From Candidatus Lindowbacteria bacterium RIFCSPLOWO2_12_FULL_62_27 (lineage in GTDB: Bacteria; Lindowbacteria; 2-12-FULL-62-27), in the NCBI GenBank assembly GCA_001784175.1, contig MFPR01000004.1, forward strand, positions 124,001 through 188,000: DNA of 64,000 nucleotides, in the 5' to 3' direction. The notes under the pieces are model-generated. The model did no database searches and had not been told where the DNA came from. It saw only the letters and a list, made by a program, of their open reading frames with translations. A program made the position numbers and the translations under genes. Of the stretch, positions 12,075-34,509 are shown piece after piece (positions within the stretch are counted from its first letter, which is position 1; each line of letters begins with the position of its first letter).

Positions 12075-12254
12075 TCATGCGACCTGCGCGGGCGTTTTCG
12101 TGTATTTTTCGACGAAGGCCTTGATGTCGTCGATGCGTTCGAGGATCATCCGCGCTTTTTTGACCCCGAACTTGAATCCAAATTTGTCGTCCGAATCGCG
12201 GTAGACCCCGATCAGGGGGCTCCCGTTGTACTCCGTTTCCCTCACTTCACTCAT
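12075..12254 (-). CDS. Small hypothetical protein (59 aa), missing from the ORF track
   Basis: SD GGAGGT, then MSEVRETEYNGSPLIGVYRDSDDKFGFKFGVKKARMILERIDDIKAFVEKYTKTPAQVA*; GC-rich third positions. Confidence 0.8.
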   Translation of the reverse strand: MSEVRETEYNGSPLIGVYRDSDDKFGFKFGVKKARMILERIDDIKAFVEKYTKTPAQVA

Positions 12255-12323
12255 GGCGACACCTCCAGAAATTTTTTGTCCGCCGGCGGCGGACTTGAAG
12301 TTCGCGACAGTCGCGAAAATAGA

Positions 12324-18500: not shown

Positions 18501-21120
18501 AGTTATCACCAATGTTGTCCTGGCCGACTTGCCATTCTTCCGTAACACCATTTTTGAAGATTACTGATGCGTGTCTATTCCCCGCATCAGTGTTTTGAAG
18601 TTCAAGAACTGCAAGGTCGCCCTCTGCACGAATGGGTCGAGTAGCGCCTCCGACTATATGGAGTCTCAATGAAGGCGCCGTCGTCCCGATGCCGACGTTG
18701 CCGCTACTTTTTAAAGCAACCAAAACCGTATCGGCTACCACCAGCGAATCCGTGACGTTGATACTGCCCGCGAGTTTCGCGCTGGTCACCGCGCCCGCGG
18801 CGATGCTGTCGCTCGAAATCGCCGCCGTCAAATTCGCCGGAGCGAGACTGCTCGCCGAAATCCCCGTCAACCCCGACCCGCTTCCGCTAAACGTCGTCGC
18901 CGTCACCGTCCCGGCCACGTCCAACTTCGACGCCGGACTCGCCGTCCCGATGCCGACGTTGCCCTGGGTCACGATAAAATCGGTGATGGGTGTTACCTGG
19001 ATTTTGCCAAACGTGTTTGAGATGGTTGCGTCGCTGGTGTCATTCATTTCCAGCGCCAGTTGGCGGCCTGTGGTGCTGAACAGTGTCATACGTCCACCAA
19101 CGACGCCGCTTTTACCGACGCCCAACGGGCCGCCAATACGCGCAACTTCGTTTCCAAGCCCCGAACCGCCGTCGACATCAAGCTTGGCGTTCGGACTCGT
19201 CGTCCCGATGCCGACGTTGCCCGTGTCATTGATGACGAACGTCCCCGACGCGTTGTTCGAAATGACGCGCATCGTGCCGAGGATGTGCATGCTGTCGACG
19301 GGACTCGTCGTTCCGACGCCGACATTGCCGCTGTTGGACCAGGCCAGCGCAATCTTTTCATATCCGCCCCGACGCACGCCCAACGCGCCGGCCGGCGATC
19401 CCAGCCCGTACCCGAACAGGGTGGGGCCATCGATGGTTGCGGCGCTCGAAAGCTTGTTGTAGCCGAGACCATGGAATGTATCTGTGCCGTCTTGGAAAAA
19501 CAGGGTGTTTCCGCTCAACTGAATGTTTCCGCCCGCGATGTCGAGCTTCTCCGACGGCGCCGTCGTCCCGATGCCGATATTGCCGCTACTTTTTAAAGCA
19601 ACCAAAACCGTATCCGCCACCACCAGCGAATCCGTGACGTTGATACTGCCCGCGAGTTTCGCGCTGGTGACTGCGCCCGTGGCGATGCTGTCGCTCGAAA
19701 TCGCCGCCGTCAAATTCGCCGGAGCGAGACTGCTGGCCGAAATCCCCGTCAACCCAGACCCGCTTCCGCTAAACGACGTCGCCGTTACCGTCCCGGCCAC
19801 GTCCAACTTCGCCCCCGGCGTCGTCGTCCCGATGCCGACGTTGCCTGAACTTAACAACGTCATGATGGTGTTGCTCGTCGGATCAAACGCTGCGTGCGCC
19901 AATGAAATATCCAGACGAGTCCTGGAACTTGTGCCGTTGTTCTCATATCGGGACAAATTAAACGCCGCCGCCGCTCCGAATGCTTCCGACGCTTTCCCCT
20001 GGCGGGCGAGCATCAAGGTCGTCTTCGGATCATTCAACGTCGACGTGGCGGTCTGCGATTGATGCACAACCAGGAGTCCGTTTGTATCGTAAACGAAATT
20101 GTTGTCGTCAATGACCTTCAGACCGACTTGCAATTTTGTGCGCGGCGCCGTCGTGCCGATGCCGACGGCCGAATCGTAATAAATGCTGTCGCCACTCGTT
20201 GTCCACTGACTTGAACCGCCGCCACCCGATGCGGTTGTCTGAGTTGTGCCGTCAGGGAATTTGAAGCCGCCCGAGGTCGAATAAACTGTTCCTGCGACTT
20301 CCAACTTCGTCGACGGACTCGTCGTGCCGACGCCGACGTTGCCCGCTTCTGTGATAACCATTTTTGCGTGTTCAGATCCGCCTGGATAACCCACACCCGC
20401 GGCTCTCGTCCAGAATTGTATGGCCGGGTCGCCGCGATTTTCGAGACGAATCAACCTGCCGGGGTTGGCGACATTCTGTGATCTTAAACCGTTGAAATCA
20501 AAATCAACCAGATCAGCGCCGGGATGCGCTTGTATTCCCAGTTGAGAAAGTTGACCCCCAAGGCTCAATTCCGTTACTGGCGCGGTTGTCCCGATGCCGA
20601 CGTTGCCGGTCTGATGATAGACGTCTCCGTTGCCCGCCAGGGTCCAGTGCGTATCCGCGCCGGATGCAATGCCGGTGAGGAGCGATCCGTTTCCGACAAA
20701 CTTGTTCGCCGTCACGGTTTCGGCCACGGTCAGAGCGCCGTAGGCCGTCGCGCCGGTGTCGAGGAATTTGGCGATGAAGGCGTAGGGGGAGGTCGTCAGG
20801 CGAATTTTCGGGGTCATGGCTTCGCCGGCCACGGTCACTTTGAGCCAGTACTGGGTGTCGAACGCGATATTGAGCGGCGAGGTGACGCCCAGCCGCGTGC
20901 TGACGATGCCGTTTGACGGCGTCAGCGTCTGGTTTTCCGGACCCCAGACAGACACGCCGGCGTCATTGAAGATCTCGAAGTCCACGCTCTTGGACGCCAT
21001 GATCCGCGTTCCGACCGAGTCGGTCAGTTCGCCCTGGAAGGAGATATATTTCGGAACGTCCGCTCCTGCGGACAAGCTCCAGAGTAAAACCAGAAACAAA
21101 CCCAATACTGACTTTTTCAT
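15592..21120 (-). CDS. Giant secreted fibre/adhesin-like protein (1842 aa) with ~25 GNVGIGTxxP repeats and a C-terminal intramolecular chaperone (Peptidase_S74-like) plus coiled coil
   Basis: SD GGAGGT, signal peptide MKKSVLGLFL..., N-terminal ISFQGELTD...SPYAF domain, repeats, SDGRLKNVRG...IGLVAQEVKEAIPEAV. Confidence 0.88.
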   Translation of the reverse strand: MKKSVLGLFLVLLWSLSAGADVPKYISFQGELTDSVGTRIMASKSVDFEIFNDAGVSVWGPENQTLTPSNGIVSTRLGVTSPLNIAFDTQYWLKVTVAGEAMTPKIRLTTSPYAFIAKFLDTGATAYGALTVAETVTANKFVGNGSLLTGIASGADTHWTLAGNGDVYHQTGNVGIGTTAPVTELSLGGQLSQLGIQAHPGADLVDFDFNGLRSQNVANPGRLIRLENRGDPAIQFWTRAAGVGYPGGSEHAKMVITEAGNVGVGTTSPSTKLEVAGTVYSTSGGFKFPDGTTQTTASGGGGSSQWTTSGDSIYYDSAVGIGTTAPRTKLQVGLKVIDDNNFVYDTNGLLVVHQSQTATSTLNDPKTTLMLARQGKASEAFGAAAAFNLSRYENNGTSSRTRLDISLAHAAFDPTSNTIMTLLSSGNVGIGTTTPGAKLDVAGTVTATSFSGSGSGLTGISASSLAPANLTAAISSDSIATGAVTSAKLAGSINVTDSLVVADTVLVALKSSGNIGIGTTAPSEKLDIAGGNIQLSGNTLFFQDGTDTFHGLGYNKLSSAATIDGPTLFGYGLGSPAGALGVRRGGYEKIALAWSNSGNVGVGTTSPVDSMHILGTMRVISNNASGTFVINDTGNVGIGTTSPNAKLDVDGGSGLGNEVARIGGPLGVGKSGVVGGRMTLFSTTGRQLALEMNDTSDATISNTFGKIQVTPITDFIVTQGNVGIGTASPASKLDVAGTVTATTFSGSGSGLTGISASSLAPANLTAAISSDSIAAGAVTSAKLAGSINVTDSLVVADTVLVALKSSGNVGIGTTAPSLRLHIVGGATRPIRAEGDLAVLELQNTDAGNRHASVIFKNGVTEEWQVGQDNIGDNSNRFGIRYVPGNPTTEFVSVTTSGNVGIRTMSPSDSLHVAGTVRVTDSMTIGDTVFVANAKSGNVGIGTTNPLRHLHISAGSVEPELLLEKSDQAPDAKIFRLINRGARMEIGTVNDAVTVEQSVVAAFTRTGNVGIGSTTPGTRLDVSGGAHVSDSFAVGGPAGDSLVVLKSGNVGVGTASPNAKFEVNNGQSMFHDGAFTDPHTGTAYDAKFGGPNRGIAVKGISTFNDNVGIGTTAPGDSLHVAGRIQMDTNAAASAADGAIRWSGSDFEGRKAGSWASFTSTGGATPDTDWTMVGGASGNIYKSAGNVGIGTSTPSDSLHVAGTVRVSDSITVGDTVFVVNSKTGNVGIGTTNPGDELHIIGSGAGVYANIKNTTTGTSNTAGVWLERGDQANGHAVLQLATGGETAEEWQIGVRLASDDLHIRDEQSATTRMLIQKTGNVGIGTTAPGDSLHVKGGIISDTLTVGDTFLVVKKSGNVGIGTDAPGYALDVQTSGVNQYVAQFKNTDPSGSSRGLLIDITGGSSASVRPALSIATGGPGTVFEIKASGKVGIGTTSPSDTLHVVGTARVSDSMTVGDTVFTVNSKTGNVGIGTASPASRFHVPGGDVTMDENRWIKFTTPWGDRNVIGSFSNDANQAYTIIRSLDDNSANGSGIDFQNYNGVTVMKIREPGNVGIGTTTPGDSLVVKGGVISDTLTVGDTFLVVKKSSNVGVGTASPSAKLDVAGTAKFSDSVIVSDTVLVVNKQAIRVGIGIASPTGRFQVSDGEIPGNGLDDDNDGNIDELTGQTIVTAAGNVGIGTTSPSTKLEVAGGLVVDSPTLYVDATNNKVGIGTDNPDTTFSVNGGASKVGGGSWATFSDGRLKNVRGDFKAGATELMKLNPVRYQYKSDNPVGIRDGAEHIGLVAQEVKEAIPEAVESNNKGYLMLNNDPIIFAMLNAFKEQQARIQAQDQRIAELQSQIDSMKDK

Positions 21121-21179
21121 GTTACGTGACCTCCCCAGGTCGTTTAATCCTCGACGCCGCGATGCGGCGGAAGTAACAC

Positions 21180-21261
21180 TCAATATTCAACACTCAATTC
21201 TCAATTCTCAAAGTTTTCAAACTTGAAAATTGAGTATTGAATGTTGAGTGTTGAGTGTTGA
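21180..21261. repeat. Heptamer-repeat inverted hairpin (TCAAnnn)n / (TTGAnnn)n
   Basis: tcaatat tcaacac tcaattc tcaattc ... ttgagta ttgaatg ttgagtg ttgagtg; a related copy lies at 15520-15576. Confidence 0.8.
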
Positions 21262-21267
21262 TTTTTT

Positions 21268-23286
21268 TCATCTCACGATCGCCATCTTGTCCACGATCTT
21301 GTTTCCGCCGCTTTGCAGGATGTAGACGTACACGCCCGATCCGAGTTTCTGGCCGTGTTTGTTCGTCGTGTCCCACGTGAGCGTGTTCGGCCCCGCCGCG
21401 CCGGGGGCCGCGAGTTCTTTGACGAGCCGGCCGGCCACGTCGAATATTTTCAGCGTCACGTCGGCGGCGGATTGCAGACTGTATTTGAAGGTCATGGCGC
21501 CCGCCGGGTCCGGACCCGGGTTCGGATACACGAACGTGTTTTCCTTCGAGAGCGGGGCGGCCAGATACGCGGTCAAATATTCGGGCGTGCCGACGACCAC
21601 GGTCAGGGTGATTGCGGATTCCAGAACCAGTGAGGAGGACTGGCGCATATTCACAGGACCGGCCGGGCCGCCGATCAGGTACGCCTCGTAGCCGTCCGGA
21701 AGGCCGGCCGCGTCCCATTTGAGGGTCGCGCTCTTTACGCCGGCCGGCGACGTGACAACTACCGGCCACGCCGTCGCGGTCTTCACCGGCGACGCGATGC
21801 TGGCGGCGTAATATTTCCCCCCACCCCCACCCTCCCCCACAAGAGGGGAGGGAGTGGAACGCGCTTCGCCAACCCACACTTGCATGTCTCCCATCATTCC
21901 CGGCGCCTTCCAGAGGTCGTTGGCGTCTTCTCCGTCCGACGCCGCCGGCGCGACGCCCAAAAACGCGTACTCGTCCCGGATTTCCGGAACGTCGCTGTAG
22001 GCCATCAGGCGGAGGCGCCAGTTCGAAACTGAACCCCCCCCTGCCCCCCCTTCAAAAGGGGGGGTGTAAACCGGGGACTGTTGTTTCACCGGCATCGTCT
22101 GCGGCAGGCGCTTGGTTGGATAATACACGATCGAGCAGGAGGCGTTCGCCTTCACCCAGAAGCCCACCCACGGTTTCAGTTGCACGGCCGTTTCGCTCGC
22201 CGCGAAGGGATTGACGTACTGCTCGGCGGTCTGCGAGCGCCACTGGAGGCGCGTGTCGATCGTTGCGGCCATCTGCGCCGGCGTCAGGGCGCGAAGCGTG
22301 ATCGGGCCCGGCGGGCCGTTCAGATTCGTGTCGACCGCCACGTCGTCCAGCCAGTCGATGAAGTGCGTGAAGGGATTTCCGATCATGTTGGCGCCGCTGT
22401 CGAGCCGCACGCTGAATGCGCCTGTCACCGCCGACGGTGAGCCTGCCAACCCCACGCTCGTGGCGCCGCTCGATCGGAACCAATAGGCCCGGCCGCTCTC
22501 ATATTGTGAAAACGTCCCGTTGGCCGACACGTGGGTCGATTCGGGCTGATTGCCGACCGACTTGTATCGGTTGAACGTCGCGTGCGCCGAGGCCAGCGTC
22601 GGGTCGTAGGAATACGAGATGGGCGTGCCGCCGTAGGACAACTGATTGAGGCCCGTCAAGGACGTGTCGGGCTTGCGAAACGGCGCGATCATCACCCACT
22701 TGCTCTTGGGCGTCTCCGTCGGATGCGCGGGCACCCGCCGCTTGTCCATCATCACCACAAATACGGCCCGGGCGGCCGACCGCTCCGCCGTGATGACGTA
22801 GGCGCCGTCCCCGCTCGAAAGCGAGACTGACTTGCTGATCCGCCCCGCCGTGTCGGACGTGGCCGAGTCGGTCGCCACCTGCGATCCTTCGTATTCGACC
22901 GTGAAGGTGACGGCGGCGTTGGGCGTAAGCCCGCCGTTGGAGGAATCCTTCACATCCAAAACGAGCGTGACGAATCCGCCGCCGGTTCCGACCAGATGCG
23001 CGTCGCCCACGATCACGAGCGAGTCGCCCACCGTGCCGACGGGCGCCACATGGCGGAAATAAAAGAGGCCGGTGTTGAGGACGTAGGAGGCGCCGGCGAG
23101 CGTGTCCGTGCCGGTTTGGCCGACCGAGGCGAGGAGGTTGTAGCTGGGCGAGGAGAGGGTGTCACCGCCGGTGGAGATCACGGGTTCGGTGATCTGGTGG
23201 ACAGTGGACGAAAGGACCGCGTATGCGATGAGACCGAGGGCGGCGATCAGGATCAGGGCAAGACCGAGACGCTTTTGCCTGGTCAT
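21268..23286 (-). CDS. Secreted/surface protein with Ig-like domains and C-terminal FlgD-Ig / secretion-tail-like domain
   Basis: Signal peptide from MTRQKRLG; C-terminal FVYPNP...VTLKIFDVAGRLVKEL...WDTTNKHGQKLGSGVYVYIL...KMAIVR. Confidence 0.85.
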   Translation of the reverse strand: MTRQKRLGLALILIAALGLIAYAVLSSTVHQITEPVISTGGDTLSSPSYNLLASVGQTGTDTLAGASYVLNTGLFYFRHVAPVGTVGDSLVIVGDAHLVGTGGGFVTLVLDVKDSSNGGLTPNAAVTFTVEYEGSQVATDSATSDTAGRISKSVSLSSGDGAYVITAERSAARAVFVVMMDKRRVPAHPTETPKSKWVMIAPFRKPDTSLTGLNQLSYGGTPISYSYDPTLASAHATFNRYKSVGNQPESTHVSANGTFSQYESGRAYWFRSSGATSVGLAGSPSAVTGAFSVRLDSGANMIGNPFTHFIDWLDDVAVDTNLNGPPGPITLRALTPAQMAATIDTRLQWRSQTAEQYVNPFAASETAVQLKPWVGFWVKANASCSIVYYPTKRLPQTMPVKQQSPVYTPPFEGGAGGGSVSNWRLRLMAYSDVPEIRDEYAFLGVAPAASDGEDANDLWKAPGMMGDMQVWVGEARSTPSPLVGEGGGGGKYYAASIASPVKTATAWPVVVTSPAGVKSATLKWDAAGLPDGYEAYLIGGPAGPVNMRQSSSLVLESAITLTVVVGTPEYLTAYLAAPLSKENTFVYPNPGPDPAGAMTFKYSLQSAADVTLKIFDVAGRLVKELAAPGAAGPNTLTWDTTNKHGQKLGSGVYVYILQSGGNKIVDKMAIVR

Positions 23287-23480: not shown

Positions 23481-23558
23481 ACATATATTGATATTGATGG
23501 AGAAAGGCGAAGTGAGACCCCCCTTTGTCCCCCCTTTTCAAGGGGGGAAAAAACGGAT

Positions 23559-25430
23559 CTAAACCTGCCTCGTGCGGCCCGGCAAAAGTGGCGCGGCCGG
23601 ATGACGCGCGGGCGGGGCGACGTGGGCGCCGATGCCGCCGGGGCGGGACAGGGCGAATTCGGCGGCGCGGCGGGCGAAGAAATCCTGTTCGGCGCGGGCG
23701 CGGCGGCGGAGCAGATCCTGGACGTGCGGGCGGCGGAGGCGGCTGAGGAGCAGGTAGAGATATTTCCGGACGCTCGCGTACTTTTCGACGCGGGCCGCGA
23801 GGAAGAGCGAATCCGCGGGGATCAGATCGTAGCGGTCGATGCGGATGAGGGCTTCGAGCGCGGCGAGCCTGAGGAGGAGCGGGTATCCGGGATGGGCCGC
23901 GCGCCAGAGCGCGGGGACGGCCCGGAGGGCGCCGAGTTCGCCCAAGGCCCAGGCCGCGCGGATGCGGACGAGGAGCGCGCGGCGGGAAAAGAGGCACTCG
24001 AGGAACCGGTTGACGGCGTTGGGGTCGGACAAAAGCGCGGTGGCGGAGACCGAGGGTTCGAGGGCCCACGGAAAGTCGAGGCATTTCTGGAAGCGGGCGG
24101 CGAGAGGGGCGCAATTATATATGGAGAGGCGGGTGGCGTAAAAGCGGAGCCTGAAGAGCGCGGGCTTGAGTTTGCGCGCGTCGGCCTTGTGGCTGAAGGC
24201 GACGCTCCGAAAGGCCGACGAAAAGCCGTTCGAGAGAGCGGCGCGGAGCCCGCGGATGGTTCGCGCGAAATCCGGATTGGCGCGGAGCAGTTGCCGGCCC
24301 CATCCGTGCGCGGAAGAATAGGGGTCCTTGAGGTTGAGCCGAGGGAATTTCAAATGAAAGTAACTGTTCCACGGATCGTTGAGCGGGCGGCGGCCGCGGA
24401 GCGTAAGGAAATTCTGTGCGAGCCAGTCGGTCGAAACGAAAATGCCGGCGGCCCGGAGGCCCTGAACGTAGGCGCGGAGCGTCAGCGTCGGATACCGCGC
24501 ATAGAGGCGCAGATAATCAGGCGGCACGTGGTAGAGCGTGCGCGCGATGCGGTCAAAATCGTGGGCCAAGCCGACCCATCCGGCGGGGCTGCAGGCGCCG
24601 TCGAAGGCGCGGGAGGACGGGCCGATCTCGGCCTTGCCGAAATGGGTCGGGAGGCCAAACCGCGACCAGAGGGTTTTGCGGAGGCCGTTGAATGTGTTTT
24701 GAATCTCGCGGCGGTCGGCGCCGAAGAGGAACATGTCGTCGACGTAGCGATGGTACCGGCCGCGGAGTTTCCATCCGTTGAGGAGTTCGTGGTCGAAGGG
24801 CGTGAGATACGCGTTGGCCAGAACGCCCGAGATGGTGGGGCCGGCCGGAAGGTCCATGCCGTCATTGAGGATGAGCGACCGGAACGCGGTGAAGAGCGGA
24901 TCTTTGGGAAGCATCCCGCCGAGGGTTTCGATAAGCTGGCCGCGCCGGACGTGCGGGTAAAACTTGCGGACGTCGGTTTTGACGTAATACCGGTACCGGC
25001 CCGCCGCGCGGCGCGCGGACTGCTCAAATTGTCCCCAGGAGGACCGCCAGTCGAGGAAGAGCCGGTCGGAGGAGTGGATGCCGGCGAGCCGGTTGCCGCA
25101 GGAGACGCGGCCGAACCGGTCCATCGCGCGTTCGAGGGGCTCGCGCGCGGCGAGAATCAGTGCGACCGCGGCGACTTCGTCCTTGAAATTCCGGTACGCG
25201 TACGGCCGGTCCTCGCCGGGTTTTTTGGGGATCGGAAACCGCAGGATGGGGCTCCAGCGGTATCCGCGCCGGATGTGATCGGCGACCCTCCGCAGGTTAT
25301 CCCAGAGGCGCCATTCGAAGAGGCGGACCTCGATGGTGTCGTAGTAGGGCGACTCCCACTGCCACTGGCGCGCCTTGAGAAAGGCGGCGTAGAGGATGCG
25401 GAGGTCGGCGGCGCGGTCTAAAAGGTTTAT
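23559..25430 (-). CDS. Reverse transcriptase (UG/Abi-like) with C-terminal HEAT-like repeats; probable ATA start
   Basis: RT motifs FE..L.DNL...IPKKPGEDRP, KTDVRKFYPHV, LPAGPTISGVLANAYL, YHRYVDDM; C-terminal VRIRAAWALGELG..AVPAL, LRLAALEAL. The frame is open with RT-like sequence for 102 codons upstream of the ORF-track ATG (25124). Confidence 0.88.
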   Translation of the reverse strand: MNLLDRAADLRILYAAFLKARQWQWESPYYDTIEVRLFEWRLWDNLRRVADHIRRGYRWSPILRFPIPKKPGEDRPYAYRNFKDEVAAVALILAAREPLERAMDRFGRVSCGNRLAGIHSSDRLFLDWRSSWGQFEQSARRAAGRYRYYVKTDVRKFYPHVRRGQLIETLGGMLPKDPLFTAFRSLILNDGMDLPAGPTISGVLANAYLTPFDHELLNGWKLRGRYHRYVDDMFLFGADRREIQNTFNGLRKTLWSRFGLPTHFGKAEIGPSSRAFDGACSPAGWVGLAHDFDRIARTLYHVPPDYLRLYARYPTLTLRAYVQGLRAAGIFVSTDWLAQNFLTLRGRRPLNDPWNSYFHLKFPRLNLKDPYSSAHGWGRQLLRANPDFARTIRGLRAALSNGFSSAFRSVAFSHKADARKLKPALFRLRFYATRLSIYNCAPLAARFQKCLDFPWALEPSVSATALLSDPNAVNRFLECLFSRRALLVRIRAAWALGELGALRAVPALWRAAHPGYPLLLRLAALEALIRIDRYDLIPADSLFLAARVEKYASVRKYLYLLLSRLRRPHVQDLLRRRARAEQDFFARRAAEFALSRPGGIGAHVAPPARHPAAPLLPGRTRQV

Positions 25431-25846
25431 GATGGCCGGCGGCGGGTGCGGGTGCGGACCGTCCGAGTGGCTTTGAGGATGGCGGCCGGAGAAAACGCCT
25501 CCTCGAAATCGAAGACGTTGCTGAAATCGGCGAGCGTGTCCTCGTCGGTCTTGGTCATTTTTCCCGCGTCCACGAGCGCAAATACGATCCGGCCGATGGT
25601 TTCCGTGGAGTCGATGCCCCAGGCGTTCAGGACCTCCCTGACCATCAGGCCGTACTCGCGCGCGGCGAGGTCCCGGACGGCCTTGCAGAGTTCCTGTCCG
25701 GAGATATGCCGCCGCTGTCGGAGGCCGCGGAGGCTCGTGTCGAGGGCGGAGAGAACGAATCCCAGCGCCTGGGGGCGGACGATCCCGCCGAGAGCCTCGT
25801 TGGCGATTTTTTCAAGTTCCTCGTATGCGCTCGTCTGTTTTTTCAT
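25427..25846 (-). CDS. Minf_1886-family conserved hypothetical protein (Planctomycetes/Verrucomicrobia type)
   Basis: HISGQELC...YGLM...VLNAWGI.ST..IG.IVFALVDAG.M.KT.ED...DF..VFDF motif string. Confidence 0.8.
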   Translation of the reverse strand: MKKQTSAYEELEKIANEALGGIVRPQALGFVLSALDTSLRGLRQRRHISGQELCKAVRDLAAREYGLMVREVLNAWGIDSTETIGRIVFALVDAGKMTKTDEDTLADFSNVFDFEEAFSPAAILKATRTVRTRTRRRPS

Positions 25847-25862
25847 TTCGGATTTATATATC

Positions 25863-27284
25863 TTACGGCCGGGAGGCGCGCAATGTGCCTGCATCGGCGT
25901 ATTCGGGGATCATCTGTTCCAGCCGGCGGCAGAGGTCGGCGTCTTCGCCGTCTTCGGCGGCCGCCAGAAGGCCTTGGACCTGGTCTTCGACCGCCGATAG
26001 TTCCGGCGGGTCCTCGATGACCTCCAGAAGATAGTCATCGACCCTCCGGCACGGGATTTCCGACAGATCCTCCTTCAGTTTTTCTCCCGGCCCCAGGCCC
26101 GTGTAGACGATCGGGACATCGACGCCGGGGGTTTTTCCGAAAAATCGAATGAGGTCATGGACCAGTTCCGTGATGTACATCGGTTCGCCGATGTCGAGGA
26201 TGTAGATTTTCCCGGGCCGGCCGGCGGCGGCGCTGGAGAGGACGAGTTCGACGGCTTCGGAGGCGAGCATGAAATAGCGGCGGGCGCCGGGGTCGGTCAC
26301 GGTAACCGGGCCGCCGCGCTCGATCTGCTCGATGAATTTGGGCAGGACACTGCCGGAACTTCCGAGGACGTTTCCGAACCGGACTGAGATCAGCCGTCGG
26401 CCGGGGGCGCGGTCCTGCGCGGCCTGGACGATGAGTTCGCCGGCGCGTTTGGTCGCGCCCATGATCGAGGCCGGGCGGATGGCCTTGTCGGTCGACACGT
26501 GGACGAATGTGTGAACGCCGCCGGCGAGGGCGGCCTCGACGAGGAGATGCGTCGAAGCGACGTTGTTCCGGACGGCGGCGCGAACCTCGCGGTCGAGGAT
26601 GCAGACATGTTTGTAGGCGGCGGCGTGAAAGACGACCGTCGGCGAGAACCGGTCAAACACTCTCTGGACGTCGGCCGGGCGGGACATGTCGGCGAGGAAC
26701 CATGACGGGCCGGTGGCCCATTCGCTGAGCCGATAGACCGCAAGCTCCGACAGATCGACGCCGGCCAGGGCTTCCAGCGGAAATTGCGCGAGCTGCGAAA
26801 CCATTTCCATTCCGATGGTGCCGCCGGCGCCGGTGACCAGGACGCGCTGGCCTTTCAGAAAGGCCGCGACTTTGCCCTTTTCGAGGACGCGCGGATGGCG
26901 GCGCAGGAAATCCTCGGGATTCACGTCCCGGACCGTCGTGATGGGGTCGTTGGTCGCGACGATGCTCCAGACGCCGGGCACGATCAGCGCGGGGATTTCC
27001 TCCTGCATGAGTTTCCGGTGGATCTCGCGGATCCGGCGGCCCGGCGCCGACGGGATGGCGATGAGGACGCGTTCGGCGCCGTATTTTCGCAGGAAAGGCC
27101 GGATGGGTCCTCCGGCCCATTCGATCGGAAGGCCGGCCAACGTCCGGCCGACTTTGCGGGTGTCGTCATCGACAAACGCGACCGGGCGGATGTTCGGAGC
27201 ATGGCCGCGGGCAAGCCCCTGGACCACGAGCTCTCCGGCCTCGCCGGCGCCGTAAATGACGACCCGGAGTTCCGTGGGCGTCAA
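25863..27284 (-). CDS. Nucleotide-sugar 4,6-dehydratase, CapD/PglF-like (no N-terminal TM domain)
   Basis: IYGAGEAG, VTGAGGTIG, HAAAYKHV, STDKA, MGATKR, VRFGNVLGSSGSV. Confidence 0.9.
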   Translation of the reverse strand: MTPTELRVVIYGAGEAGELVVQGLARGHAPNIRPVAFVDDDTRKVGRTLAGLPIEWAGGPIRPFLRKYGAERVLIAIPSAPGRRIREIHRKLMQEEIPALIVPGVWSIVATNDPITTVRDVNPEDFLRRHPRVLEKGKVAAFLKGQRVLVTGAGGTIGMEMVSQLAQFPLEALAGVDLSELAVYRLSEWATGPSWFLADMSRPADVQRVFDRFSPTVVFHAAAYKHVCILDREVRAAVRNNVASTHLLVEAALAGGVHTFVHVSTDKAIRPASIMGATKRAGELIVQAAQDRAPGRRLISVRFGNVLGSSGSVLPKFIEQIERGGPVTVTDPGARRYFMLASEAVELVLSSAAAGRPGKIYILDIGEPMYITELVHDLIRFFGKTPGVDVPIVYTGLGPGEKLKEDLSEIPCRRVDDYLLEVIEDPPELSAVEDQVQGLLAAAEDGEDADLCRRLEQMIPEYADAGTLRASRP

Positions 27285-28033
27285 TCGACCAGGCCCAGGC
27301 GGTGCAGAAGGATGCGGCCCATGAGGCCGAGATGATCGAGGATGTTTTGCGCGAGTTTCATTTTCGACGCGCCCTGCTGCCGGGGCCGCATGAAGGAGGG
27401 AATTTCCTTGATGCGCGCCCCGCTTAAGAGGAGCGTGTAGGTGACTTCGGCGCCGAAGAGGTAGCGGTCGTTTCGAAGTTTCAATTTCATGAAGGCCGCG
27501 CGTCGATAGAGCCGGAAGACGGCGCTGATGGTGTAGATGCCCCTCATGTGCGGCCAGAGGATGATCCGGTACAGGAAGGAGGCGGCGCGGCTCAGATAGA
27601 GCCGGTGCGCAACGACGTTCCCGCAGCTTCCGCCGGGAGCGTACGGCGACGCGGCAATGACGTCGGTCGAGTCGTCCATGAGTTCAAACATGAGAAGGAT
27701 GTGCTCGATCGGATAGTTGCAGTCGGACTCGTAGACGACGACGAACGTGTCCTCCGCCCGAGCGAATCCCTCGCGGACGGCGGCGCCGAGCCCGCGGTTC
27801 TGGGGCAGGTTGACGACTTCGGTGTCCGGCAGTTTCTTGCGTTCCGCCTCGAGAACTTGAGCGGTGCGGTCGGCGCTGCCGTCGTTGACGAAAATGACGC
27901 GAGGCGGCGGCGCGCCGGCGTCTTTGAGAAGCCCGATCAGTTTTTGGAGTTGTCCGACCAAATGGGGCACGGCCGCCTCTTCATTGAAACATGGAATGAC
28001 CATGGAAAACCGGCCGGCATCCTTTACCTGCAT
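27281..28033 (-). CDS. Glycosyltransferase family 2 (DPM1-like)
   Basis: VIPCFNEE, VNDGSADRT, NRGLGAA, GASKM. Confidence 0.9.
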   Translation of the reverse strand: MQVKDAGRFSMVIPCFNEEAAVPHLVGQLQKLIGLLKDAGAPPPRVIFVNDGSADRTAQVLEAERKKLPDTEVVNLPQNRGLGAAVREGFARAEDTFVVVYESDCNYPIEHILLMFELMDDSTDVIAASPYAPGGSCGNVVAHRLYLSRAASFLYRIILWPHMRGIYTISAVFRLYRRAAFMKLKLRNDRYLFGAEVTYTLLLSGARIKEIPSFMRPRQQGASKMKLAQNILDHLGLMGRILLHRLGLVD

Positions 28034-28088
28034 GCATCCCCTCCCGTCGATATCACGTGCGCGATATTATCTAGACGCTGCGAACTTA

Positions 28089-28967
28089 TCAACGCTTTCC
28101 CGGATCCCGATAGAAACGGTGGATTTCCTCCAGACCCTCGGACAGCGTGACCTCCGGATGCCAGCCCAGAAGCCGCGCCGCCTTTCGAATGTCCGCCTGA
28201 CAGACGAGCGGCGGATCGGACGACGAGGCGGCGGGCGCGATCTGCGGTTTGACGGCCACGCCGGTCAGGCGGATCACGAGGTCCGCAAGGTCCTGCAGGG
28301 ACGTGGCGACGCCGGCGCCGATGTTGATGATTTCGCCCGAGGCCGCTTCGGCGTCGATGGCCAGCGCGATCGCGCGGCAGACATCGCGGACGTGGACAAA
28401 ATCCCTGGCGGTGCCCGGATGGGATTTGATCACCGGCGCGCGGCCCTGCAGAACGTTTTTCATGAACGCCGCTTCCACCGTCGGGCGCTCCTCCAATCCG
28501 GCGGACAGCCCATACACGTTGAACAGCCGGAGGATCGTGGTCGGAAGGCCGAAAACGCGGCACATGATGAGGCACGAGAGTTCTCCGCTGTGCTTGCTGG
28601 CCGCGTAGGGCGACGCGGGCCGGACCGGATGAGTTTCGTCGACCGGTTGGGCGTCGGGCGGGCCGTAGACTTCGCAGGTCGATGTGTAGACGACTTTTTT
28701 AACGCCGGCGCGCCGGGCGGCGTCCAGCACGTTGAACGTCCCGAGGGCGTTCACTTCGAAGTCTTCGTCCGGGAATTCGAAACTGCGGTTGACCGGAAGA
28801 CACGCCAAGTGAACGACCACGTCGATCCCCTCCATCGCGGCGCGCACTTCCGAGGCGCGCCGGACATCCGCCCGGATGGAACAGACCCGAAGACCCCGGG
28901 CGGCAAGGACCGGTGCGAGGTGCCGTCCGATGTAGCCATCGGCGCCGGTGATCAGGACGGTGGTCAT
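28089..28967 (-). CDS. NAD-dependent epimerase/dehydratase
   Basis: ITGADGYIG, YAASK, RLFNVYG, RDFVHV. Confidence 0.9.
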   Translation of the reverse strand: MTTVLITGADGYIGRHLAPVLAARGLRVCSIRADVRRASEVRAAMEGIDVVVHLACLPVNRSFEFPDEDFEVNALGTFNVLDAARRAGVKKVVYTSTCEVYGPPDAQPVDETHPVRPASPYAASKHSGELSCLIMCRVFGLPTTILRLFNVYGLSAGLEERPTVEAAFMKNVLQGRAPVIKSHPGTARDFVHVRDVCRAIALAIDAEAASGEIINIGAGVATSLQDLADLVIRLTGVAVKPQIAPAASSSDPPLVCQADIRKAARLLGWHPEVTLSEGLEEIHRFYRDPGKR

Positions 28968-28980
28968 CGCAGAAGAAGCA

Positions 28981-29943
28981 TCACTGCAGGGCCGTTTTGT
29001 ACCACGCCACCGTCCGGCGGATGCCCTCTTCGAGCGGCACCGCGGGTTTGAATCCCAGTTCGGCCTGCGCGAGGCGGGTGTCGGCCAGATGCCGGCGGAC
29101 GTCGGCGGGCCGGGCCGGTTCACGGATCGGCTCGCCGGTGTAATCGAGCGCGCGGGAAATCTGCCGGATCAGCTCGTGGATGGTGACTTCCCGGCCGGAT
29201 GCGATGTTGACGGTGCGGCCGTGCATCCGATCGGACTTGGCGGCCGACACGATTCCCTCGACGGTGTCGGTCACATACAGGAAATCGCGCGTCTGTTCGC
29301 CGTCGCCGAAAATCACCGGCGGCTGGCCGGCCAATATCCGGCGGATCACGACCGGGATGATGGCCGCGTAACTGCCTTCATTTTGGCGCGGGCCGTAATT
29401 GTTGAAGGGCCGGATGATGGCCATGTCGATGTTGAAGGTCCGGGCGTAGGAGCGCACGAGCAGGTCCGCCGCGGCCTTGGCCGCCGCATAGGGCGTCTCG
29501 ACCATCATCGGGTGGTCCTCGTCCATCGGCACGCGGACGGCCGATCCGTAGGCCTCGGAGGACGAGCAGTGGATGAGGGTTTTGAAAAGGCCCTGCCGGC
29601 AAAGCGCGCAGAAGACGAGCATCATGCGGTAGATTTCCTCCGCCGCCCAGTCGGGTCTTTCGAGAGACGCGGGGAGCGGGATGGTGGCCATGTCGAAGAC
29701 GACGTCGATCTTTTCGTCGCCGACCACCTGGCGCATCCGGTCGATGTCGCAGACGCTTTCGACGACAAGTTTCAGTTGCGGAAACTTTGTGAACGCCTCC
29801 GCCAAGTTCGACCGTTTTCCGAGAAAGAGGTTGTCGACCACCACAAGTTTCCCCGGTTTCTCCGGAATCAGGCGGTCGACGAGGTGGCTTCCGATGAATC
29901 CGGCGCCGCCGGTGACGAGGATCGACCGGTCCTTCAGTTCCAC
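28981..29943 (-). CDS. NAD-dependent epimerase/dehydratase
   Basis: GTG start; VTGGAGFIGSHL, YAAAK, RPFNNYGP, GDGEQTRDF. Confidence 0.9.
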   Translation of the reverse strand: MELKDRSILVTGGAGFIGSHLVDRLIPEKPGKLVVVDNLFLGKRSNLAEAFTKFPQLKLVVESVCDIDRMRQVVGDEKIDVVFDMATIPLPASLERPDWAAEEIYRMMLVFCALCRQGLFKTLIHCSSSEAYGSAVRVPMDEDHPMMVETPYAAAKAAADLLVRSYARTFNIDMAIIRPFNNYGPRQNEGSYAAIIPVVIRRILAGQPPVIFGDGEQTRDFLYVTDTVEGIVSAAKSDRMHGRTVNIASGREVTIHELIRQISRALDYTGEPIREPARPADVRRHLADTRLAQAELGFKPAVPLEEGIRRTVAWYKTALQ

Positions 29944-31112
29944 AGGGGCGGCATCCCGTCTTTCAGGAAATCCGACGACGGCACCGTCAGCCGCCCGCCG
30001 CCGAGGGCCGCCAGAAGCGCGTCGACGATCCGGACGGCGGCGCCCTCCTGGAAAGGCGAGGGGGCCTTCGCCATCCGATCGTACACGGCGGCGTCCGACA
30101 GGATGCGCGTCGCTTCGGACACGATCCGGCCGGTGTCGGCGCCGACGAGCACATTCTGGCCGGCTTCGACGGTTTCGAGCCATTCGGTGTTGTTGCGGAG
30201 CGTCAGGCATGGCACATGGAAAATCGAGGCTTCCTGCTGAACGCCGCCGGAATCCGTCAGGGCGATCCGGGCCTGGGTGAGGAGCGACAGAAAATCAAAA
30301 TATCCGAGCGGGTCGACGATCCGGATCCGCTTCTGCAATTTTTCAAGGAGGCCGAACTGCGAAAACATTTTCCGGGTCCGCGGGTGGATCGGATAGACCA
30401 CGGGCATATCCAGTTGAAGGAGGGATTCGGCGATCGCGGAGGCGCGCTGGGGCGAATCGACGTTTTCCTTCCGGTGGCTCGTCACGAGGGCGTAGCTGCA
30501 CGGCTGAAGGTTCATCTGCGCCAGGATGGAGGAGGACTTCAAGGCCATGTCCCGAATCCGGCCGGCGGTTTCGACCAGCGTGTCGCCCGCGAGGCGCGAC
30601 GCTTCGGCCCGGCCTTCGTGGGTCAGGTTTCCGAGGGCCCGGGCGGTGGGCGCGAAGCAGAACGTCGCGACCGCGTCGACCATGCGGCGGTTGATCTCCT
30701 CCGGCATCGTGAAATCGAACGAGCGCACGCCGGCTTCGATGTGCGCCACCGGCACCCCGCATTTGATCGCCGCGAGCGCTCCGAAGAGCGTGGTGTTGGT
30801 GTCGCCCTGGACGACCACGGCCGCGGGCCGGTGTTCGGCGATGACCGCTTCGGTTTTTCTCAGTCCTTCGCCGGTCTGCCCGCCCGGGCCGTCGGACCCG
30901 ACTTCGAGAAACGCATCGGGTTCGGGCAGGCCGAGTTCCTTGAAGAAAATCGCGGACATGTTGTAGTCGTAGTGCTGTCCGCTGTGAATCAGCCGGTACC
31001 GGTGTTTGCGCCGGATGATCTCGAGAAGCACAGACCGGATTTTGATGAACTCCGGCCGCGTGCCCACCACAAACAGAAAATGCCCGTCGTCCGCCACAGA
31101 TCGATCAGTCAT
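29934..31112 (-). CDS. wecB: UDP-N-acetylglucosamine 2-epimerase (non-hydrolysing)
   Basis: GTRPEFIK, HSGQHYD, QGDTNT, HIEAG, TDSGGVQ. Confidence 0.93.
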   Translation of the reverse strand: MTDRSVADDGHFLFVVGTRPEFIKIRSVLLEIIRRKHRYRLIHSGQHYDYNMSAIFFKELGLPEPDAFLEVGSDGPGGQTGEGLRKTEAVIAEHRPAAVVVQGDTNTTLFGALAAIKCGVPVAHIEAGVRSFDFTMPEEINRRMVDAVATFCFAPTARALGNLTHEGRAEASRLAGDTLVETAGRIRDMALKSSSILAQMNLQPCSYALVTSHRKENVDSPQRASAIAESLLQLDMPVVYPIHPRTRKMFSQFGLLEKLQKRIRIVDPLGYFDFLSLLTQARIALTDSGGVQQEASIFHVPCLTLRNNTEWLETVEAGQNVLVGADTGRIVSEATRILSDAAVYDRMAKAPSPFQEGAAVRIVDALLAALGGGRLTVPSSDFLKDGMPPLWN

Positions 31113-31206
31113 GGCGCGCCATCGAAACTCCTCCATCTGAATATTTCAAGAAGCTCGGCCGTTTTTCTTGCTTTCCGGCCGCCGGCTGGTAAAATCCTTT
31201 TTGCCG

Positions 31207-32160
31207 ATGGCTGAACTATCCTGCATTAACATCAACTTTGATTCGTTCGGCTGGGCCCTCGGGTTGCCGCCGGGCCGGACGCGGGACCCCTCTTTTTTCG
31301 AGGTCGCCGACCGGTTCTTCGCGATCTCCGACCGGATGGGATTCAAATACACGATCTACGTCATCGGGCGGGACTTGGAGAATCCCGAGGTTGCCGCGCG
31401 GGTGCGCGACTGGCACGACCGGGGGCATGAAATCGGAAACCATTCCTACAGCCACCTGCAGAACCTGGGGTATCTCGGGGACGGCGAGATCGAGTCGGAG
31501 GTGATGAGGTCGCACGAACTGATTGCCCGGGCGTGCGGCCGGGCGCCACGGGGGTTCATCGCGCCGGCCTGGGCGACGTCACCGGCGCTGCTCCGGGTGC
31601 TGATCAGGAACCGCTATCTCTACGACACGTCGCTTCTGCCGTCCTATTTCATGTGGCTGGCCTCGGCCAAAGTCTGGTGGAACTTCCGTGGAGACGAGCG
31701 CCAGAAATCGGTCCTGCAGCGGAAAGACCGGCTGGCGAATCTGATCGGGCGGCGCCGGCCGTTTTTCACGGACGGCGCCTCGCTGACCCCGCAGGCGGCG
31801 GGCGGCGGGCTGCTTGTCATTCCTTTGCCTGTGACCCCGGTGTTTCGCCTGCCGCTCTGGCACACGATGGCATTCTTTTTTCCGCGCTGGATCTTCGACC
31901 ACGTCCTTCGGACCACCCTCCGGATGCGATTCTTCTATTATCTGGTCCATCCCTCCGATCTGGCCGACCTCGACGACATCCCGGCGGGATACATGGAGAG
32001 CAGCCGCGTGCTTGAAAAACAGCGGATGGCCGTGCCGGTGGCGGAAAAGATACGCCAGATGGAGACATTTTTGGCGGTGGTCAAAGAGCGCAGCGGCAGG
32101 ATCGTCACGCTGGAGACCATCGCCCAGGCCCTCTGGAAGGAGAAACAGGGGGCGCCGTGA
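31207..32160 (+). CDS. Polysaccharide deacetylase family protein
   Basis: GHEIGNHSYSH, GFIAPAW, YDTS. Confidence 0.85.
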   Translation: MAELSCININFDSFGWALGLPPGRTRDPSFFEVADRFFAISDRMGFKYTIYVIGRDLENPEVAARVRDWHDRGHEIGNHSYSHLQNLGYLGDGEIESEVMRSHELIARACGRAPRGFIAPAWATSPALLRVLIRNRYLYDTSLLPSYFMWLASAKVWWNFRGDERQKSVLQRKDRLANLIGRRRPFFTDGASLTPQAAGGGLLVIPLPVTPVFRLPLWHTMAFFFPRWIFDHVLRTTLRMRFFYYLVHPSDLADLDDIPAGYMESSRVLEKQRMAVPVAEKIRQMETFLAVVKERSGRIVTLETIAQALWKEKQGAP

Positions 32161-32936: not shown

Positions 32937-33945
32937 GAAACCTTACCTGCGGTATGCCCTGAATATCGGCATCAGCGTTCTCATCCTGGGATTCATCTTC
33001 ACCCAGGTCTCGATCGCCCAGATCACCGGCAGCCTCCGGGCCGCCGACCTCGCCCTGGTGCTGCTCTCCTGCGCGCTCGGGGTGTTAAGCCTGATCCTCT
33101 CTGCGTGGCGGTGGGGGATGCTGCTGGAATATCTCGGACAGACCCACGGATTCGGCCTCCTTTGCCGCCTCACGTTCACGGCGTTTTTCTACAATAACTT
33201 TCTGCCCGGCGGCGTTGCGGGAGAAGTCGCGCGGGTTGCGATGTTACCACCGGCCGATGCCGGCATGGACCGGCAGACGCACCTGACGCGGATCACCGCG
33301 ACGGTGGTGACCGACCGGATCGTCGGCATGATCGGGATCATGCTCCTGGCGTTTTTCGGATTCGTTTTCTCCCGGGACCTTCTTCGAGACGACCGGCTGT
33401 CGGCCGTGTTTGTCCTGCTGACGCTGGGCCTCCTGGCGGTCTTTGTCGTCCTGTTCAGCCGCCGGATCCAGAGCCGGGTCAAGACCCTCTTTGCGGCGCC
33501 GCTCAGGATTCTCGCGCCGGTCCGCGGGCCGATCAGGACCATGACCGACGCGCTCTTCGTCTACCGGGACCGGTACGACGTCTTCTTCAAGACCATCCCG
33601 GTCAGCGTGGCCGCGAACATCTGCGTCGTCGGATATTTCTTTTTCCTGGCGCGGTCGATCGACGTCGATATCGGATTTTTCAAACTGCTCCTCTTCGTGC
33701 CCTTCATCGAATTCGTCTCGACCATTCCGGTGTCGTTGAGCGGGGTCGGCATCCGCGAAGCCACGACGATTTTGCTGTTCGCGTCCCAGGGCGTGTCGGC
33801 CGCGCAGTCGATCGCGGTGTCGCTTCTGACGTTTGTGGTGCTCGTGGTTCTCGGCGCGATCGGGGCGTTCTTTTTCTTTTTCCGGAAATCACCCGCGCAG
33901 CCGGTCGATGGTGCTCCACCGAAGCCGGATGATGGGAGGCAGTGA
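32929..33945 (+). CDS. Flippase-like membrane protein (LPG-synthase TM / UPF0104)
   Basis: Multi-TM; RW..LL, FYNNFLPGGVAGE..R, P.S.SG.GIRE. Confidence 0.85.
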   Translation: MSKKPYLRYALNIGISVLILGFIFTQVSIAQITGSLRAADLALVLLSCALGVLSLILSAWRWGMLLEYLGQTHGFGLLCRLTFTAFFYNNFLPGGVAGEVARVAMLPPADAGMDRQTHLTRITATVVTDRIVGMIGIMLLAFFGFVFSRDLLRDDRLSAVFVLLTLGLLAVFVVLFSRRIQSRVKTLFAAPLRILAPVRGPIRTMTDALFVYRDRYDVFFKTIPVSVAANICVVGYFFFLARSIDVDIGFFKLLLFVPFIEFVSTIPVSLSGVGIREATTILLFASQGVSAAQSIAVSLLTFVVLVVLGAIGAFFFFFRKSPAQPVDGAPPKPDDGRQ

Positions 33946-34509
33946 GCGGACGGCCAGGCGGTTTTTCAAGAGCTGTGCGCGAAGCCACGAGACGGTCTTG
34001 GGATCGCCGGGATAGCCGGAGCCGACTTCGCCCCACTTGCCTTTGAGCCGGTCCATGTCGCGGTCCCGGATCACCTTGGCGACGATGGACGCGGCCGAGA
34101 CGATCGGATGGTTCTGGTCAGCCTTCCACTCGGCGGTCACGTCGAGGCCGGGGAACCGCTCGATCAACTCCCTGGTGAGCCGGTGCGGCGGGAGGAAGGC
34201 GTCGACGATGAGTCGGTCGGGCCGGATTTTTTCGATAAGCCGGCACAGCACGTCGTATTCGAGCCGGTTCAGATTCGAGTCCGGCCGGTTGATGGCCGCG
34301 GGCGTGACGCGCTCGTAGGCGATTTCAAACCGTTCCGTCAGCCGGTCGAACACGCGCTCGCGGGCCTTGCGGGTCAGCGCCTTCGAGTCGCGCACGCCCA
34401 GTTCGCGGAATATCCCCATCTGGGACTCGTCGGCAAGGACGGCGCCCATGACCATCGATCCGAGGACCGGCCCGCGGCCGGCTTCGTCGAGGCCGACGAT
34501 CCGGGTCAC
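33889..34509 (-). CDS. rnhB: Ribonuclease HII, archaeal/eukaryotic type
   Basis: GLDEAGRGP, DSK, VSAASIVAKV.RD, GSGYPGDPKT, R.RWST. Confidence 0.9.
   Translation of the reverse strand: MTRIVGLDEAGRGPVLGSMVMGAVLADESQMGIFRELGVRDSKALTRKARERVFDRLTERFEIAYERVTPAAINRPDSNLNRLEYDVLCRLIEKIRPDRLIVDAFLPPHRLTRELIERFPGLDVTAEWKADQNHPIVSAASIVAKVIRDRDMDRLKGKWGEVGSGYPGDPKTVSWLRAQLLKNRLAVRSLPPIIRLRWSTIDRLRG

Follow-up and report, generated by a model that had tools for sequence, protein, structure and literature searches.

The window analysed here is a stretch of 64,000 nucleotides from Candidatus Lindowbacteria bacterium RIFCSPLOWO2_12_FULL_62_27 (contig MFPR01000004.1, positions 124,001 to 188,000), and the element in question is a minus-strand gene that encodes a reverse transcriptase (RT) extended by a helical, HEAT-like repeat region. 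The gene follows directly on a small gene of the Minf_1886 family (TIGR04138), whose stop codon overlaps its first codon. A reading made from the letters of the window alone, hereafter the sequence-only reading, had described it as an unclassified RT-HEAT fusion, stand-alone or domesticated, and possibly a new defence or DNA-synthesis system. Judged from the sequences compared, three traits of the gene are unusual, namely its behaviour as a core gene throughout the phylum, its fixed Minf_1886 partner and the conserved absence of a canonical start codon. The features on which the analysis relies are collected in Table 1.

Table 1. Positions, in window coordinates, of the RT gene, its parts and the associated features
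Feature	Position	Strand	Basis or remark
RT open reading frame	23559..25430	minus	623 codons and stop; codon 1 is ATA at 25430-25428; Class-1-type UG/Abi architecture
N-terminal 102 codons before the first canonical start	25124..25430	minus	best conserved part of the RT
RT fingers/palm, about residues 60-280	24591..25253	minus	sequence read; RVT_1 match; invariant alignment columns
Motif 1 IPKKPGEDRP, residues 67-76	25203-25232	minus	sequence read
Catalytic YVDD, residues 229-232	24735-24746	minus	sequence read
C-terminal HEAT/alpha-repeat domain, about residues 461-600	23631..24050	minus	Pfam HEAT_2; alphaRep profile match; model helices
Stop/start junction ATC-ATA-A	25427..25433	minus	Minf_1886 stop TAA (25429-25427) overlaps RT codon 1 ATA (25430-25428)
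Junctions in genomes G001, G002 and G003			ATC-CTG-A in each; Minf_1886 stop TGA
Minf_1886-family gene (TIGR04138)	25427..25894	minus	NCBIfam 107.5 bits, cut-off 60; longest open reading frame 155 aa
rnhB (RNase HII)	33889..34509	minus	Pfam RNase_HII 1.1e-39; same strand as the Minf_1886-RT pair
Palindromic 32-nt repeat (C6-loop-G6, flanking T and G runs)	23517..23548		directly after the RT stop, at the end of the unit

Reading frame, domains and start of the RT gene

Translation of the minus strand gives 623 residues and a stop, and the plus-strand reading of 23559-25430 is a different, low-complexity frame. The RT motifs, the YVDD tetrad and the C-terminal HEAT repeats quoted in the sequence-only reading were all recovered on the minus strand by translation and Pfam. 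In addition to motif 1 and the tetrad, the protein carries SCGNRL at residues 110-115, TDVRKFYP at residues 152-159 and LPAGPTISGVLAN at residues 194-206, and the catalytic residues are intact both in the sequence and in the alignment of homologues. RVT_1 matches residues 141-269 with 29.4 bits in the Pfam protein scan, where the cut-off is 29.6, and with 31.7 bits, above the cut-off, in the genome scan; HEAT_2 matches residues 465-528 with 29.4 bits (cut-off 27.7). When the profile of the RT family was compared with the PDB, artificial alphaRep proteins were matched at 2.9e-33 to 1e-14. The structure prediction that the sequence-only reading had proposed was run with AF2; in the model (mean pLDDT 80.5) the RT fold is followed by a helical middle region and by helical repeats at residues 459-595. 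In Foldseek the best match for the RT part is the G2L4 RT (9d4s_A, 2.1e-9), and RT domains of diversity-generating retroelements (DGRs) and of group II introns also align over about 280-300 residues; AbiK, UG15/DRT4, AbiA, DRT6 and DRT9 align over 497-626 columns, with low TM-scores of 0.31-0.41. A conserved pair of tyrosines (Y29, Y30) lies in an N-terminal loop of lower confidence, the block of residues 21-30 having a pLDDT of 62. The GC content of the gene, 0.64-0.67, equals that of its flanks, as the host-like GC noted earlier had implied, and that of the fibre genes is 0.57-0.60. From its residues and those of its homologues, the encoded UG/Abi Class 1 polymerase is intact and probably active.

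The beginning of the gene was compared in the four genomes available for the phylum, a little-known one from groundwater; these genomes are of metagenome-assembled (MAG) level, belong to four genera of a single family and are 81-94% complete (the window's own, G000, and G001, G002 and G003). In the window the first ATG, GTG or TTG of the RT frame is Met103 at 25124, and in all four genomes no such codon occurs from the preceding in-frame stop to codon 67-103. Residues 2-102 must be translated because they form the best conserved segment of the protein and hold motifs 1 and 2; they are 71-78% identical, with a dN/dS of 0.12-0.22 over the six genome pairs. The overlap of the Minf_1886 stop with a near-cognate RT start codon follows the usual 4-nt arrangement, and its letters read the same in contigs from four public DNA runs, which argues that the junction is not an assembly slip. 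In the alignment, the homologues that start with methionine (P0003, P0004, P0006 and, from a sister clade, P0010-P0012) begin exactly at the column of the window's ATA, and five others (P0005, P0007, P0008, P0009 and P0013, the last being the fourth sister-clade protein) are called from an internal methionine. The public gene calls are shortened to 521 aa for the window locus itself (P0002), 524 aa for P0009 and 557 aa for P0008; in these three the N-terminal fingers, where motif 1 lies, are partly or wholly missing, and one of them is named 'hypothetical protein'. Since gene callers cut before motifs 1 and 2, surveys built on called proteins may miss or misjudge this RT lineage.

The simplest reading that the junction sequences suggest is termination-reinitiation at CTG or ATA, coupled to the translation of Minf_1886. 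No Shine-Dalgarno (SD)-like sequence was seen before the junction, and the four junction sequences gave no support for a conserved RNA structure (-7.56 kcal/mol, with a positive covariation term). By the start-codon strengths of E. coli, a CTG or ATA start should yield a small fraction of the output of ATG. Upstream of codon 1 the window's RT frame runs on without a stop for another 127 codons (25431-25811, minus), over Minf_1886 in another frame, and the corresponding opening amounts to only 6 codons in G001, 23 in G002 and 25 in G003. This extension matched no family in PADLOC or NCBIfam and is most likely an accident of high GC.

Two other accounts of the junction have to be considered. The gene might be silent or decaying, its ATG having been lost, so that either no RT is made or only a fragment from Met103 that lacks motifs 1 and 2; the position of the first canonical start, the proteins of 521, 524 and 557 aa given by gene callers and the lack of an SD-like sequence would all fit. 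However, a canonical start is equally absent in all four genera, between which synonymous divergence is near saturation, all four orthologues keep 623-626 open codons, and the 102 codons before Met103 are the most conserved of a gene whose catalytic residues are intact, which makes decay quite improbable. The second account is a single fusion protein of Minf_1886 and the RT, produced by programmed -1 frameshifting before the Minf_1886 stop. The RT frame is indeed the -1 frame of Minf_1886 and overlaps its last codons in 4/4 genomes, it is open for 127 codons upstream in the window, and in G003 the stop is preceded by an A-rich run (AAG AAA AAA); yet in G001, G002 and G003 the frame closes shortly before the junction, no slippery heptamer of the form X XXY YYZ is common to the four junctions, no conserved structure follows them, homologues with ATG begin precisely at the column of the junction, and in the sister clade the RT occurs without Minf_1886. 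The frameshift fusion was rejected on the upstream closure in three genomes and the missing shared heptamer, and is regarded as very improbable.

Class and distribution of the RT

The claim that the protein has the RT-HEAT architecture of UG/Abi enzymes is borne out by the HEAT_2, alphaRep and Foldseek matches, by the AF2 model and by PADLOC, in which 66 RT models matched at E <= 0.01, all the leading ones being of the DRT/UG kind. The best is RT_UG35 (125.6 bits, 5e-37), which aligns at profile positions 329-768 of 938 from RT residue 13, followed by RT_UG25 (94.1 bits, 1.7e-27; profile positions 269-695 of 870), and UG21 is also among the leaders. The PADLOC scan took ten proteins, eight of them neighbouring matches from a search of cluster representatives: the sister-clade protein P0012 scored 115 bits on UG25 and 131 bits on UG35, six of the neighbouring matches scored 279-676 bits on UG25, and the two others, P0019 and P0029, reached 284 and 328.5 bits on UG35. 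In that representative search, in which the family profile was run against 1.84 billion cluster representatives, only two clusters exceeded 1000 bits (P0004 and P0012), the next one having 251 bits, and both the search and the tree give UG25/UG35 relatives as the nearest clusters to the family.

The tree, computed with IQ-TREE, comprised 47 rows: eight family members, the 35 best single-stretch matches trimmed to the matched region, and four RT-only outliers. The family forms one clade of eight rows (SH-aLRT 99) and falls outside a clade of 14 UG25-like and 21 UG35-like rows (SH-aLRT 98), in a tree that is rooted at midpoint only and in which many rows are compositionally deviant. In Mestre 2022 (PMC9226505), UG25 and UG35 are described as carrying an N-terminal methyltransferase besides the RT. 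The present protein lacks a methylase domain, since it begins where the RT part of the UG25 and UG35 profiles begins. Because its scores are far below those of UG35 and UG25 members, because it has no methylase and because it branches outside both, it is classed, on sequence comparison, as a small ungrouped lineage of Class-1-type UG/Abi enzymes (RT plus alpha-repeat), nearest to UG35 and UG25 but outside either.

The sequence-only reading had also stated that the gene is not a retron, a group II intron or a DGR, and the searches agree. The retron motifs NAxxH and VTG are absent from the RT sequence; among NCBIfam models, retron_St85_RT scores 34.7 bits against a cut-off of 235, and group_II_RT_mat (TIGR04416) 48.1 bits against a cut-off of 300, with the RT part only. 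RNA families of introns or retrons had no match at E <= 1 between 15 and 35 kb of the window, and because the eight families of direct repeats of at least 40 nt in that interval all fall outside the RT and its flanks, there is no pair of template and variable repeats (TR/VR) at the RT. That a classical retroelement was overlooked, whether retron, group II intron or a DGR aimed at the adjacent fibre genes, could be argued from the Foldseek alignments with DGR and group II RT domains and from the repetitive surface-fibre gene that adjoins the RT, but in the three other genomes fibre genes are not beside the RT, and with the model scores, motifs, RNA families and repeats all pointing the other way such an origin is hardly conceivable. 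The retron, group II intron and DGR identities were rejected on the basis of motifs, model scores, RNA families and direct repeats. The window's genome has three further RVT_1 matches (C10:19500-20189, C20:183028-183660 and C4:229377-229688), of which one is partial and the other two are strong, with 146 bits in an open frame of 569 aa and 105 bits in one of 504 aa; these may be RTs of group II introns or other retroelements.

Among 5.8 billion proteins, a word-indexed search retrieved 12 relatives of the RT, eight at 62-100% identity and four, of 613-637 aa, at 37-40%. An orthologue is present in 4/4 genomes of the phylum at 64-71% identity; 57 other genomes that were searched gave weak partial matches only (best 7.8e-8). 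Among the same four genomes RecA is 87% identical and RNase HII 63-65%. Over the six genome pairs the dN/dS of the RT is 0.16-0.30 (NG86), at a dS of 0.87-1.8, which is near saturation. As far as these alignments reach, the RT within the phylum is a vertically inherited core gene under purifying selection and not the cargo of an island.

Outside the window's phylum the distribution may be patchy. An RT at 38-39% identity, with an ATG start, occurs in two genomes of a sister clade (L021 and L022), where a TolC-like gene lies upstream and an NTP_transf_3 gene downstream, followed in L022 by a gene for phosphoribosyl pyrophosphate (PRPP) synthetase; the setting of the RT there is housekeeping-like too. 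In L021 the junction is a canonical ATGA overlap with a different upstream gene, which encodes a CxxCxxCC-domain protein (7069-8004), and in L022 the gene just upstream of the RT encodes a radical-SAM protein on the opposite strand (7229-7975).

Minf_1886 and the surrounding genes

The Minf_1886-family gene lies directly upstream of the RT in 4/4 genomes of the phylum, the other flanking genes differing from genome to genome; in each it is above the TIGR04138 cut-off, is the only TIGR04138 gene and is linked to the RT. Its true start in the window is likely the ATG at 25846, giving 139 aa, where the orthologues begin with MKK. Among 201 sampled genomes TIGR04138 was found in 25, always as a single match, and in the 21 of these outside the phylum no RT occurs within 1.5-kb flanks (0/21). 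Nor was a recurring neighbour found: among the 30 same-strand flanking ORFs kept from 18 of the 21 loci without RT, 12 opposite-strand ORFs having been dropped, no family appeared more than twice. In the alignment the four RT-linked orthologues bear a basic C-terminal tail and the others do not.

The protein is a near-signature of Planctomycetes and Verrucomicrobia of unknown function, according to PMC2474590, and neither a function for it nor its pairing with an RT was found in the literature searched. In the Protein Atlas its matches are unnamed clusters only, and its record there begins at residue 17 of the longest frame. Pfam and PADLOC gave 0 families, a profile search of PDB sequences 0 matches at E <= 10, and Foldseek against the PDB none at E <= 0.001. 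The AF2 model (pLDDT 90.5) contains only helices according to DSSP; over residues 21-123 VIA-align lists almost exclusively winged-helix domains, those of ORC/Cdc6 at Z 8.7-7.3 and of Stn1, DpnI and Fur at Z 6-7, values which, by the tool's own warning, are within the range of common arrangements. Minf_1886 may therefore be a small helical protein with a winged-helix-like core, for which the model offers nucleic-acid binding as a lead only.

As the sequence-only reading had it, the RT is the last gene of a co-oriented run consisting of wecB (Epimerase_2), two epimerases, a family 2 glycosyltransferase (GT2), capD (Polysacc_synt_2) and Minf_1886, and lies upstream of a fibre operon; Pfam and NCBIfam confirmed both. 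Downstream are the genes of a 697-aa protein with a type IX secretion system (T9SS) tail and of an 1863-aa repeat protein that ends in a Peptidase_S74 tail. When eight proteins of the window were searched by tblastn against about 15-20 kb around each of the three other orthologues, only two neighbours proved to be shared, the Minf_1886 gene (3/3) and capD, the latter in G002 only and on the opposite side of the RT from its place in the window. In the comparison of neighbourhoods that had been proposed, Minf_1886 was conserved in 4/4 genomes and the polysaccharide and fibre operons were lineage-specific. On this evidence the polysaccharide and fibre genes are later, lineage-specific insertions around an unbroken Minf_1886-RT pair, around which the cell-envelope cassette has moved.

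Two further linkages recur. The rnhB gene lies upstream of Minf_1886 on the same strand in 4/4 genomes, with a 4-nt overlap in G003, about 80 nt away in G002, 3.4 kb away with two genes between in G001, and 8 kb away in the window, where the polysaccharide cassette intervenes. Downstream of the RT the window holds a MerR-like gene, recA and recQ (8786-12875, minus); the MerR-recA(-recQ) group is linked to the RT unit in 3/4 genomes. In G001 it comes immediately after the RT, in G002 it is 5.5 kb from rnhB, and in G003 recA is on another contig. From these linkages the ancestral layout is concluded to have been rnhB-Minf_1886-RT near MerR-recA-recQ. In the window the interval between rnhB and Minf_1886 holds, on the plus strand at 31168-33945, genes for a polysaccharide deacetylase, a formyltransferase and an LPG_synthase_TM protein, and on the minus strand, at 27281-31136, the genes from wecB to capD.

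In the Pfam scan the neighbours in the four genomes comprise polysaccharide, rnhB, recA, recQ, MerR, tetratricopeptide repeat (TPR), MotA-like and T9SS genes. No defence-related Pfam family was among the neighbours scanned, nor a nuclease, primase or nitrilase partner, so that the statement that the gene has no such partner and lies in no defence island was upheld. The flanks leave no room for a dedicated non-coding RNA (ncRNA): in G003 the RT overlaps the gene upstream by 4 nt, and in G002 only 44 nt follow it. Of the two alternatives left by the sequence-only reading, 'domesticated' agrees with the presence of the gene in 4/4 genomes, its conserved position and purifying selection, whereas 'stand-alone' does not, Minf_1886 being the fixed upstream neighbour in all four.

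Several other features were observed around the unit. The palindromic repeat that follows the RT stop recurs in the genome (27 matches at E <= 10 including this copy, 18 others at E <= 1e-3) and also in many short metagenome contigs; it looks REP-like and is not tied to the RT in particular. A long, near-perfect hairpin (21160-21274) occupies the 84-nt gap that separates the gene of the T9SS-tailed protein from the 1863-aa fibre gene. It matches several microRNA (miRNA)-precursor models of plants and animals on both strands (best 53 bits, E 1.4e-8), always below gathering level, and most probably serves these two genes as a strong stem-loop or terminator and is not a miRNA. The 1863-aa protein (15592-21183, minus) contains many diverged internal repeats, with 19 copies of a 44-nt core, and its Peptidase_S74 domain is an intramolecular chaperone as in phage tail fibres and endosialidases. 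The fibre gene was probably acquired, since its GC is below that of its surroundings and it is not beside the RT in the three other genomes.

Function and comparison with known systems

The reading put forward here, tentatively, is that the RT is an enzyme of the UG/Abi Class 1 kind that has become a vertically inherited core gene, is translated from a non-AUG start coupled to Minf_1886 and serves DNA-making at the level of the host, not a mobile abortive-infection module. Ribosomes that end Minf_1886 would reinitiate at the overlapping near-cognate codon, ATA in the window and CTG in the three other genomes, so that RT output would be tied to the synthesis of Minf_1886 and probably be well below its level. 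The enzyme would then polymerise DNA for the maintenance of host nucleic acids, for example in repair or in the handling of RNA:DNA hybrids, and Minf_1886 may serve it as a nucleic-acid-binding partner. Precedents exist: G2L4, a bacterial RT that has been domesticated, functions in the repair of double-strand breaks (PMC12337344), and a PrimPol-RT of phage defence also contributes to an oxidative-damage response (PMC12439943). A more specific version, in which a defence-type RT was domesticated phylum-wide, is made in trace amounts by non-AUG reinitiation and acts with Minf_1886 and, ancestrally, with RNase HII from a shared operon in host DNA repair or RNA:DNA-hybrid metabolism, must be called doubtful.

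Several observations weigh against a role in host maintenance. Both rnhB and recA are universal genes, and their linkage to the RT is possibly meaningless. The conservation within the phylum is only family-level deep, among kin that are not independent and whose RecA is 87% identical. In the sister clade no TIGR04138 gene occurs anywhere in either genome, from which it follows that the RT does not need Minf_1886, and the sister-type RT is present in only 2 of 41 genomes sampled around one of the two sister genomes (a sample whose kinship is not reported), which looks accessory-like. Conversely, Minf_1886 is single-copy and has no adjacent RT in 21 other genomes, so that the adjacency is possibly a frozen accident kept by translational coupling, and the winged-helix resemblance stays within what common arrangements give. 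In addition, all UG/Abi Class 1 members tested have proved anti-phage, as reported in PMC9226505, so that the prior favours defence.

A close rival, and quite possible, is thus that the RT, alone or with Minf_1886, is an ordinary anti-phage system of the Abi/DRT-like type that has become fixed at one chromosomal site of a small lineage: upon infection it would make DNA, possibly in a protein-primed, template-independent manner as AbiK, Abi-P2 and DRT4 do, and bring either the cell or the phage to a stop. With its weak non-AUG start, an enzyme that may be toxic would be present in small amounts only, the best family matches in PADLOC are all DRT/UG defence models, and in Foldseek AbiK, UG15/DRT4 and AbiA align with the model over its full length. 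The conserved Y29 and Y30 in the N-terminal loop are a candidate priming site by analogy with AbiK, whose N-terminal priming tyrosine is taken to be Y44 from the PDB title 'Y44F variant'. A sample of four related MAG-level genomes and the patchiness around the sister clade would suit such a system, the characterised Class 1 members all act in defence, and the prediction for UG25 and UG35 is given as 'inconclusive', not as negative, in PMC9226505. On the other side, no defence gene is found among the Pfam-scanned neighbours in the four genomes, the RT occurs in 4/4 of them at the same place relative to Minf_1886 and rnhB, its divergence equals that of RNase HII with a dN/dS of about 0.2 and a host-like GC, and there is neither an effector domain nor room for an adjacent ncRNA.

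UG/Abi RTs are known as fast-moving anti-phage genes, and most of their groups, UG25 and UG35 included, are without a known mechanism; the gene of the window is a relative that behaves as a housekeeping gene, present in every genome of the phylum sampled, at a fixed place and conserved like RNase HII. If the host-function reading is true, a UG/Abi RT would for the first time have a cellular task other than defence, and Minf_1886, a protein shared by Planctomycetes, Verrucomicrobia and other phyla, would gain its first functional lead. The fixed pairing with the RT is the first experimental handle on Minf_1886. Within the TIGR04138 family, the upstream gene is a clear member and is single-copy as in the 21 other genomes, but it is followed by an RT only in the four genomes of the phylum and in 0/21 elsewhere.

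Among the UG groups, UG35 and UG25 likewise have an RT domain followed by a helical or alpha-repeat C-terminal region. The N-terminal methyltransferase is theirs and is missing from the window's RT, whose homologues begin at the same column, and with 94-126 bits against the 279-676 bits of the neighbouring matches it stays below member level. According to PMC9226505, the associate of UG35 is a UvrD-like helicase and that of UG25 a DUF1848 protein; neither is found among the Pfam-scanned neighbours of the present RT, and the RecQ and DEAD-box helicases that lie more than 10 kb away belong to other families and are not UvrD-like. The Minf_1886 partner, the non-AUG start and the core-genome position, in turn, belong to the window's RT and set it apart from both groups.

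AbiK, Abi-P2 and DRT4 (UG15) are protein-primed, template-independent Abi polymerases, as described in PMC9508834. They share with the RT the overall build of an RT and a C-terminal helical repeat domain, likewise in a single polypeptide without an adjacent ncRNA gene, and Foldseek aligns 497-626 columns of the model with them at E 6e-8 to 1e-7. The identity, however, is only 10-13%, the TM-scores are 0.31-0.40, and the arrangement of domains is not superposable; theirs are defence genes borne on plasmids, prophages or islands, whereas the window's is a conserved chromosomal gene.

G2L4 (PMC12337344) is likewise a free-standing chromosomal bacterial RT, its host function is the precedent for the reading favoured here, and both enzymes have a YXDD tetrad with a branched aliphatic X, YIDD in G2L4 and YVDD in the present RT. 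It is nevertheless group II intron-like and has no alpha-repeat domain, while the window's RT scores 48 bits against the 300 required on the group II model; the likeness is one of lifestyle and not of family. The RT of the window is a concrete case on which to ask whether UG/Abi enzymes can be recruited by the cell, as happened to G2L4 among the group II intron-like RTs.

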